A DNA stretch of 46,841 bases, from positions 1 to 46,841 of the IMG/VR virus record IMGVR_UViG_2648501797_000005. One strand, 5' to 3'. The notes under the pieces are model-generated. The model was not told the DNA's origin and searched no databases. It saw only the letters and a program-made list of their open reading frames with translations. Within the stretch, counting starts at the first letter, position 1; each line of letters opens with the position of its first letter. The position numbers and the translations under genes were made by a program. Below are positions 19,475 to 21,088 of the stretch, piece after piece. The stretch is from a virus (Duplodnaviria; Heunggongvirae; Uroviricota; Caudoviricetes).

Positions 19475-21088
19475 TTAAGCCTGGTTGTTAAAACTGGTGA
19501 CCTGACGCTTGCCAGACTGGAACGGCGCCCAGGTGACGGCGGGATCGCCTTCAAAGGTGCTGATCTGGCGACCGGTAGCATCGGCGCGCTTAATCTCGCG
19601 CAGCATACCGGGACCAACTGACAGGCTGGCCGCCTTCTGCGCATCAGCGTAGATATGCTTTTCGGCAGTGCTCAGCAGTTGAGAATCAGCGATGGCAGAG
19701 AGATCGACGGCTTTGTAGTCCGGAGAATGCTCCTGCAGTTGAATCATCAGACGGCGGCGATACGCCATCGGTTTTTCACCGGACAGCGGGATCGGGGCGC
19801 GTTTGCCAAAGCTGGAGAAGACGCTATCGGCTTTCACCTGCGCTTCTGCAACTTCGTTGCGCTCTTCGTCGCTCAGTTCGGTAGGAATGCGGGAGCGAAG
19901 CTCAGCAATTTCCTGGAGGATTTGAGAGTCGGCTTTTTCTTTTGCCATTTTCTCAGCCTCTTCGGCATCCGCCTTTTCTTTGGCTTCAGCATCAGCTTTT
20001 TCCTTCGCGGCTTTCTCTTCCGCGTCGGCTTTAGCTTTCGCCTCTTCCGCTTCTTTGTCTTCTGCGTCAGCCTTTTCTTTCTTGGCGGCCTCTTCGGCGT
20101 CAGCCTTGGCTTTCGCTTCCTTCTCTTCGTCGGCCTTAGCCAAACGCGCATCGATCGCCTTATTAATCAGCGCTACGATTTTTTCCTCGTCCATCTTTTC
20201 AGCCTCTTCAGGAATGGAATCAGATTTAACACCGGTAGGGGCAAGGAGCTTGTCCCACACGCCCTGTTCACAAATTGCAACGTGGTCGAGCAGCTCGGGG
20301 GATGGCTCCACCAGTAGAGGCTGACCGTCGACAATGATTGATTGAGCAACCTCTGAGAACTTCACAGTTGGCGAGGTGCTTAATTGCCTTGTTGCCATAA
20401 TTTCAGCAGCTTCGGCGTCGTACACACGCGCAACGGCCCACACTTCGCCCTTATCGGCAACCCAGGCATTTGTCAGGGTGCCAATAACGCGCTTTGAGAA
20501 CTCGTCGCTATCAAGTGTTCTTTTTTCGGGGTGAAGCCAGATAAGTGGTACGCCAGCTACCCGCTGGAGAAATTCAGGGGTGAGATAGTCGTCCGGGTTA
20601 CGGAACGTCATCTCCTGATCTGCAGATCGCCAGGTAACCCCTGTTCCGGTCACCCGGATGGCGAACATCCACATGTTGTAAAAATATTGCGGGCTGCTGA
20701 GCGTTCCGTCAGCGATGAGCGCGGCCACGTCGGTTTCGTTGAGCGCCTGCTGCGCCAGCATTTCAGCGAATGGCTGATGAAGCGGCTTTGGCAGATCGTC
20801 AATATGGAACCATCCGGCGGCCAGCGATTCGTCGTTTATCTTCGCTTCGAATTGCTCCGGCACGTCGGCGCGGTAGGTCAGATAGTCACCATGTACGCTG
20901 TGCGGCGTCAGCGGGCCATCGTACTGATAGCCTGTTTCCTCCAGCACCTCGCGCCGTGCGGCGTCTATGGCTAACTCTCCCGGCTCTATCGTCCCGCCCG
21001 GCTGGCACCATGTGCCATCATCCGAGCGCTGAATCAGGAAGACGAACTTCCCCTGACGGAACATTATCCCGCTGCCAAAAATAGCCAC
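19475..21088 (-). CDS. NUDIX hydrolase domain fused to a head scaffold-like protein with acidic/basic coiled-coil repeats (537 aa)
   Basis: N-terminal [24 protein letters not shown] fits the Nudix box GX5EX7REUXEEXGU exactly; central [10 protein letters not shown]-type repeats; located between head-morphogenesis and capsid genes. Confidence 0.6.

Follow-up and report, generated by a model that had tools for sequence, protein, structure and literature searches.

The window considered here, meaning the whole stretch of DNA that was analyzed, is the 46,841-nucleotide IMG/VR virus record IMGVR_UViG_2648501797_000005 (Caudoviricetes). It is essentially a whole temperate phage, and our subject is a minus-strand gene within it that encodes a protein of 537 amino acids (aa), laid out as a Nudix domain, a DUF2213 prohead-protease-like domain, a charged linker, and a C-terminal domain. 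The linker contains a tract of 71 residues (25 A, 19 E, 18 K, 8 D, and 1 M) in which the unit K-A-D-(A/E/S) occurs seven times, at spacings of 10, 11, 14, 11, 8, and 13 aa. A sliding composition scan places this tract at 19928-20140 on the minus strand, within the interval 19900-20160 for which an earlier note, made by a model from the letters alone, had described imperfect tandem DNA repeats encoding a scaffold coiled coil. The features of the gene, all on the minus strand, are as follows:

19475-21088, minus: the full gene, 537 aa, from the list of open reading frames (ORFs); GTG start with AGGAG 9 nt upstream of the GTG
20753-21064, minus: Nudix hydrolase domain, aa 9-112 (Pfam NUDIX, 2.9e-16; PDB Nudix matches by sequence and by fold)
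20213-20734, minus: DUF2213 domain, about aa 119-292 (Pfam DUF2213 at aa 159-276, 1.8e-5)
20203-20206, minus: Shine-Dalgarno core GAGG, 8 nt upstream of the internal ATG
20192-20194, minus: internal in-frame ATG, Met299, recognized by its conservation
20141-20194, minus: amphipathic helix, aa 299-316, overlapping helix 301-335 of the AlphaFold2 (AF2) model
19928-20140, minus: the flagged tract, 71 aa, aa 317-387, subject of the repeat, composition, indel, and selection analyses
19478-19927, minus: C-terminal part, aa 388-537, comprising the end of a long helix and a globular domain at aa 407-537

The Nudix box is intact (G32x5E38x7R46E47V48xE50E51xG53Y54, read against the consensus GX5EX7REUXEEXGU), and its residues are invariant among relatives. 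The DUF2213 domain is most likely a prohead protease, putatively with a fold like that of T4 gp21 and the herpes assemblins. Its candidate catalytic residues (H186, S237, S239, and H269) do not vary across 50 sequences that are 37-69% identical. The protein matches PHROG 6216, to which no function is assigned, and over aa 160-418, it matches two PHROGs named “head maturation protease” (phrog_530 and phrog_2229). Compared with T4 gp21 and the herpesvirus assemblins (5jbl, 8j3s, 1vzv, and 1fl1), the domain shows 9-18% identity, and Foldseek did not recover these structures; given the model of the protease domain, Foldseek returned nothing significant, and given the full-length model, it returned Nudix enzymes only. 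A PDB sequence search with the Nudix-free core, used both as a single sequence and as a 24-sequence profile, yielded no relative and only low-complexity chance matches. No Pfam family covers the C-terminal 150 aa, where the globular domain at aa 407-537 is modeled confidently (predicted local distance difference test [pLDDT] scores of 83-97).

A second, in-frame start is predicted inside the gene. Conservation of Met299 in the family is at least 90%; in an alignment of diverse homologues, it is present in 46 of 50, amid an otherwise unconserved linker, and the residues that follow it resemble a protein N terminus, M[TSA][DE]EE (e.g., MTEEE, MSEEE, or MADE). Across 50 unique upstream contexts, drawn from the clade of the window and from many clades related to family member P0134, a GGAG/GAGG/AGGA core lies at positions -15 to -5 in 96% (48/50 at -13 to -11), versus 4.2% for the remaining in-frame Met codons (n = 672) and 8.5% for codons overall. 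This core most often begins at -12 (34 contexts), with 12 contexts at -11 and 5 at -13. In the window clade, the Glu codon concerned reads GAG with a G after it in 17/17 unique contexts, and the distant homologue in phage Rac-SA53 has AGGTGA at the same distance from the start. We infer from these sequences that the gene gives rise to two products, the 537-aa Nudix-protease-scaffold protein and a predicted 239-aa scaffold (aa 299-537; 19475-20194). Given its own conserved ribosome-binding site and its own ATG, the scaffold part is probably also made alone and in excess, by analogy with known nested genes. Two considerations count against this conclusion: the case for the internal start is built from conservation, and the purine-rich coding sequence of an E/K-rich protein can mimic a Shine-Dalgarno sequence. 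The sharp position at -12 and the 4.2% control argue against such a chance resemblance.

Nested protease/scaffold genes are familiar from lambda C/Nu3, Mu I/Z, and herpes simplex UL26/UL26.5. As in the lambda C/Nu3 type, the gene described here would join an N-terminal prohead protease to a C-terminal scaffold in one reading frame, and it is flanked by the portal/minor head genes on one side and the capsid gene on the other; the in-frame internal start with a ribosome-binding site and the co-terminal scaffold product of the lambda type are, in this case, predicted. Unlike lambda C/Nu3, it has an extra N-terminal Nudix domain, and its protease belongs to Pfam DUF2213, in contrast to the S49-type gpC of lambda. 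In the published record, lambda C is listed as protease and Nu3 as scaffold (PMC10695390).

A parallel in gene order comes from the Pbunavirus phages. In the window, the order is terminase, portal, Mu-F-like head morphogenesis protein, the 537-aa gene, a 286-aa protein, and a DUF2184-type capsid protein at 17554-18585, and the order in phage PB1 is identical (portal, MuF-like, DUF2213 gene, small structural protein, and DUF2184 capsid protein). PB1 gp22, annotated as a “head maturation protease,” matches Pfam DUF2213 at 5.5e-29 and occupies the same position as Pa193 gp24, a “putative scaffolding protein” whose residues 286-326 form a helix-turn-helix pentamer below the five-fold vertices of the capsid (PDB 9B40; PMC11456595). 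In PB1 gp22/Pa193 gp24, as in the 537-aa protein, DUF2213 is followed by a low-complexity linker rich in charge, then by an amphipathic helix, and lastly by a C-terminal domain, but PB1 has no Nudix domain, and its linker is acidic, rich in E/Q/G, and free of KADAE units. There is no tblastn match between the 537-aa family and PB1 gp22, and hhalign of the family profile is weak (probability, 16%); thus, the Pbunavirus link rests on shared membership in Pfam DUF2213 and on synteny. Nor was Pa193 gp24 (9B40) recovered by the PDB sequence search with the Nudix-free core. By analogy with residues 286-326 of Pa193 gp24, the helix at aa 299-316 would be a candidate oligomerization or capsid-contact helix.

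Taken together, these observations lead us to an explanation that we consider probable, if some way from secure: within the scaffold part of a Nudix-protease-scaffold head-assembly polyprotein, the tract acts as a charged helical spacer. In this model, the polyprotein would consist of the Nudix domain (aa 9-112), the DUF2213 prohead protease (about aa 119-292), and a scaffold part (aa 299-537). The tract consists of seven K-A-D-(A/E/S)-E units with variable spacers and goes back to a 25-aa (75-bp) double unit that was duplicated long ago, and the comparison of relatives shows that it now changes by small replication-slippage indels and by the copying of one unit over another. As a helix, the tract alone would be about 10 nm long, and we posit that it serves as a length-tolerant spacer from the amphipathic helix at aa 299-316 to the C-terminal globular domain. 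We further speculate that the K-A-D-(A/S) motif has an extra role, namely, as a set of repeated cleavage sites for the fused protease. The gene is most likely the prohead protease and scaffold of these phages. A scaffold role, which the earlier note had already assumed, agrees with the gene order, with what is described for Pa193 gp24 (PMC11456595), and with the nested start.

The possible extra role of the motif can be weighed across the family. A search with aa 120-537 against 1.84 billion cluster representatives returned 1,980 clusters. Among the best 150 of these 1,980 clusters, 93 have a Nudix-like N terminus and 44 lack any N-terminal extension; longer extensions occur in a few, and the six of these scanned with Pfam all contain Nudix. 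Two family representatives, P0246 (1567 aa) and P0130 (1015 aa), have ribonucleotide-reductase-like domains or DUF5710 ahead of Nudix plus DUF2213, and these long extensions may be either real fusions or gene-calling artifacts. The linker from the protease to the C-terminal domain ranges from 65 to 231 aa across the family (91 aa in the query), and the motif [KR]-[AKSR]-D-[AS] is present in almost every linker, with a median of 4 copies (149 representatives at 37-72% identity); relative to shuffled linkers, the median z is 6.3, and z exceeds 2 in 87%. The 537-aa protein has nine copies, and ten neighboring structural proteins have none. Copies sit at the edges of domains: VKSDS at 288 directly follows the protease domain and precedes Met299, KADS is at 385, and the highly conserved Q-x-[KR]-A-D-S is at aa 417-422. 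Because the motif recurs in distant members despite its varying number and spacing, we take the motif itself to be selected.

Could the K-A-D-(A/S) units, then, be recognition or cleavage sites of the fused DUF2213 protease? This reading, which is compatible with a helical spacer, strikes us as possible but doubtful. The linker would be cut after assembly into peptides of 8-14 residues that are able to exit the capsid, and T4 gp21 digests the gp22 core in this way. It would explain why the family as a whole is enriched in the motif although copies differ in number and spacing, why the motif is restricted to the 537-aa protein among the proteins of the head module, and why copies fall at the domain borders (288, 385, and 417-422), and the predicted protease fold is itself related to scaffold-digesting enzymes. 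However, the known cleavage rules are L/I-x-E for T4 and V/L-x-A|S for herpes, and the motif fits neither; D-x-x-E would also suit a helix N-capping box, and units related by descent would have a common motif regardless of any cleavage. In addition, our literature search found no cleavage data for any DUF2213 protease and no experimental data on any DUF2213 protein.

Returning to the helical spacer, we next consider its form, which is most likely an extended, solvent-exposed, salt-bridged single alpha-helix (SAH) rather than a coiled coil with a hydrophobic core. Opposite-charge pairs at i/i+4 number 27 in the tract, compared to 13.1 +/- 2.7 expected from shuffles, and those at i/i+3 are depleted (6 versus 13.3 expected). 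Its composition is also that of SAHs, in which E/K(/R) predominate and hydrophobic residues are scarce across a stretch of about 30 residues or more. Its features also resemble those of EAAAK-type helical linkers. Like SAHs and such linkers, the tract consists almost entirely of charged residues and Ala, has a strong i/i+4 opposite-charge pattern, and is placed between two functional modules; unlike them, it has more Ala and Asp, no Arg, and irregular spacing in place of a 7-residue design. Single alpha-helices with i/i+4 salt bridges are frequently taken for coiled coils (PMC5347031, PMC4183817, and PMC4571873), and the tract resembles the INCENP helix in being readily mistaken for one. Several points weigh against one uninterrupted helix. 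The full-length AF2 model (pLDDT, 87.8) places helices at 301-335 and 357-400, without one continuous helix, and residues 336-356 are non-helical (pLDDT, 42-54), such that a helical hairpin or partial disorder at 336-356 is possible according to the model. Moreover, 35% Ala and 11% Asp are atypical for classical E/R/K single alpha-helices, and a weak Ala-based coiled coil is possible.

The stronger version of this last idea, in which the tract is a canonical coiled coil that oligomerizes the scaffold and the repeats mirror a heptad or hendecad structure, appears improbable to us. It draws on the helical, oligomeric nature of many scaffolding proteins (phi29 gp7 and P22 gp8, as cited in PMC11456595), on the long AF2 helices, and on the enrichment of opposite-charge pairs at i/i+7 (21 versus 12.5 expected). 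Against this, only 1 of the 71 residues is hydrophobic, there is no power at 100-103 degrees for Ala or Ala plus Met in the tract, and no heptad register has a hydrophobic a/d stripe: in the best register, the a and d positions together are at most 50% Ala, and the remainder are charged. The unit spacings range from 8 to 14 aa rather than running in multiples of 7 or 11, and hydrophobic periodicity is limited to aa 299-316, a separate helix directly upstream of the tract. Thus, the coiled coil proposed in the earlier note is not borne out for the tract by its composition, its periodicity, or its i/i+4 charge pattern. A further candidate, homology to TolA, was rejected. TolA domain II (TIGR02794) matches aa 299-419 at 8.4e-11, with 41.7 bits, but this is below the curated cutoff of 59.45, and the match is compositional and confined to the low-complexity region. 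The two do resemble each other in that TolA domain II is likewise a helical spacer, long and rich in Ala/Lys/Glu/Asp, whose repeats are similar to KA(D/E)AE, but the 537-aa protein has neither a membrane anchor nor TolA domain III.

Changes in length are concentrated in the tract. In an alignment of 62 unique full-length proteins (522-550 aa) from related viral contigs, 69 of the 76 gap-containing columns fall within aa 317-387, and the length variants of 1 to 4 codons among close copies (an extra E or an extra EEA) are all inside the tract. The contig L039 carries a perfect 9-bp tandem duplication, GCCGAAGAG, which is a slippage signature, and P0005 has the matching EEA insertion at the protein level; in some alleles, the third unit has been exchanged for a copy of the last unit. 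These data bear out the length polymorphism anticipated for this site. Across 78 related IMG/VR contigs, the distance between two conserved anchors is anywhere from 105 to about 133 aa, and 5-8 motifs occur in this segment. The earlier note had also called for repeat copy numbers to be compared among relatives, and here the result is mixed: length does vary in the tract, but copies that are at least 99% identical nearly all keep the same length, and changes of whole-unit copy number are rare among close relatives.

Exchange of larger pieces is also seen. In Yersinia-type alleles (L002, L059, L060, L031, L042, and others), two KADAE units are swapped for an unrelated charged insert, which is a replacement with no change in copy number. 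The amphipathic helix after Met299 (20141-20194) exists in at least three distinct mosaic alleles among relatives (L008-L087), and the pairing of helix alleles with differing tract variants suggests intragenic recombination.

The amino acid sequence of the tract is under purifying selection. Compared with relatives that are 84% identical, the tract has 23-24 synonymous and 6 nonsynonymous codon differences, a ratio like that outside the tract (138 synonymous versus 46 nonsynonymous), and the substitutions in the tract fall at third positions of the 537-aa frame in 27/36, 28/36, and 30/41 cases. This pattern bears on the rival view that the tract is an intrinsically disordered polyampholyte linker whose repeats arose neutrally, as a by-product of low-complexity DNA slipping during replication. 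We judge this view unlikely. The low AF2 confidence at 336-356 would suit it, as would the span of linker lengths across the family (65-231 aa) and the concentration of indels in the tract, but a neutral by-product would not be as conserved as the remainder of the protein (23 synonymous to 6 nonsynonymous versus 138 to 46), nor does neutrality sit well with an i/i+4 charge pattern at twice its expectation and a motif that is selected family-wide.

The same substitutions decide the standing of three extra ORFs that overlap the tract in the ORF list:

19655-20317, plus: spurious ORF
19980-20324, plus: spurious ORF
19873-20151, minus: spurious ORF in another frame

Since substitutions concentrate on third positions of the 537-aa frame, this codon-position pattern rules out all three as real genes; they are by-products of stop-poor low-complexity sequence, and the earlier note was right to call the antisense ORFs artifactual.

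At the DNA level, the tract is a real but irregular repeat of an ordinary kind. A Tandem Repeats Finder (TRF) run reported three arrays in the tract, which overlap one another:

19976-20116, no strand assigned: period 75 bp, 1.9 copies, 78% matches, score 184
20044-20129, no strand assigned: period 33 bp, 2.6 copies, 64% matches, score 81
19995-20024, strand not stated: period 15 bp, 2 copies, score 39

A repeat search likewise paired 75-nt copies at 19960-20034 and 20035-20109 that are 72% identical, and this 75-bp period reflects the ancient doubling of a 25-aa double unit. Periodicity was assessed as the base autocorrelation over the 213-bp tract at 40 lags with two nulls, one a codon shuffle that keeps composition and codon usage and the other a synonymous-codon shuffle that keeps the protein. 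Lag 75 exceeds the codon-shuffle null (z=3.9), with p=0.005 when the maximum across all 40 lags is considered. Lag 33 reaches z=2.5 against that null and also exceeds the synonymous-codon shuffle (z=3.4; p for the maximum, 0.017). Part of the repetition therefore lies at the DNA level, beyond protein constraint. A repeat is thus present where the earlier note had placed it, but its roughly 24 to 30 bp units are not a true period: lag 24 is weak (z=2.0), lags 27 and 30 fall under the null, and the K-A-D-(A/E/S) spacings in DNA run from 24 to 42 bp (30, 33, 42, 33, 24, and 39 bp). That there is no true repeat, with the periodicity a chance product of a four-letter amino acid composition, is a very remote prospect: the composition is extreme (A 25, E 19, K 18, and D 8 of 71) and most lags show nothing, but the TRF score of 184, the lag-75 result, and the finding that at least seven KAD motifs occur in 0 of 100,000 shuffles of the tract residues together refute it.

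The repeat alone carries little weight, as slippage-prone low-complexity spacers are common in scaffold and stalk proteins. The protease-scaffold reannotation and the conserved internal start are the more useful results, and these are of well-known kinds, not new kinds. There is a broader caution as well, in that a “coiled coil” label on a charged A/E/K/D helix may conceal a single helix. For the gene itself, a separate scaffold made from the internal start would, if it is indeed produced, target the fused Nudix enzyme to the procapsid, and this has testable consequences: does the nested start control stoichiometry in head assembly, and is a nucleotide hydrolase packaged in virions or not?

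A bolder joint reading can be built on the helical spacer and the cleavage sites together. Here, the polyprotein would be a self-dismantling device whose scaffold part delivers both the Nudix enzyme and the protease to the procapsid, whereupon the motifs would be cleaved and the Nudix enzyme would later be injected. Cuts at aa 288, across the tract, and at aa 419 would shred the spacer and release a Nudix enzyme resident in the capsid. We think this combination distinctly unlikely. The presence of Nudix in this position in about 60% of the closest 150 family clusters suggests a selected cargo. If the reading is true, Nudix would enter the next host along with the phage genome and work there at an early stage, where its targets might include, for example, nucleotide-derived immune signals, NAD/ADP-ribose derivatives, or RNA 5' caps.

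The reading of the gene as a protease-scaffold also corrects its annotation in many prophages of Klebsiella, E. coli, and Yersinia. Phage Chronis (as gp4) and E. coli genomes have the same coding sequence annotated, and of 5,426 complete E. coli genomes, 46 contain the gene. Nearly identical copies occur in the Klebsiella phages vB_Kpn_Chronis, RothC, and RothD, and the Yersinia vB_YenM phages have a copy that is 80% identical. In the databases, it is named only “NUDIX hydrolase,” “glycosyl transferase,” “TolA protein,” or “hypothetical.” Homologues are labeled “glycosyl transferase” in five Yersinia vB_YenM phages (L002 3460-5091) and “TolA protein” (L171 2483-3775) in phage Rac-SA53 and in an Actinobacillus phage. 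Both labels appear to be wrong, and the “TolA protein” label, including that of the Rac-SA53 homologue, follows from the resemblance of the low-complexity tract to TolA domain II.

Our literature search found no paper on the protease-scaffold identity or the internal start of the 537-aa family and no functional study of DUF2213 or of Nudix combined with a head protease. A transposon sequencing (Tn-seq) paper notes only the DUF2213+NUDIX architecture (PMC8770471). The same study calls the DUF2213 of Burkholderia cenocepacia BCAM1066 an “essential domain” (PMC8770471); BCAM1066 is probably a prophage head gene, and its reported essentiality merits reexamination.

Among the neighbors, the 286-aa protein is encoded at 18599-19459 on the minus strand, with the 537-aa gene on one side and the capsid gene on the other. 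Pfam assigns it to no family, its aa 165-242 resemble a module of very large virion structural and tail-fiber PHROGs, and by position, it corresponds to the PB1 gp23/Pa193 gp25 decoration protein. The portal gene is at 21919-23334 on the minus strand; it matches the portal PHROG at 3.6e-69 and is annotated as DUF1073 in phage Chronis. In E. coli genomes, RefSeq/PGAP names this gene “anti-CBASS protein Acb1 family protein,” which looks like a misleading label. No tRNA genes were found in the window. Elsewhere, the window encodes the following:

44353-45423, plus: lambda-type integrase
34795-35508, plus: CI/LexA-like repressor, HTH_3 plus Peptidase_S24
31563-33014, minus: DnaB-type helicase

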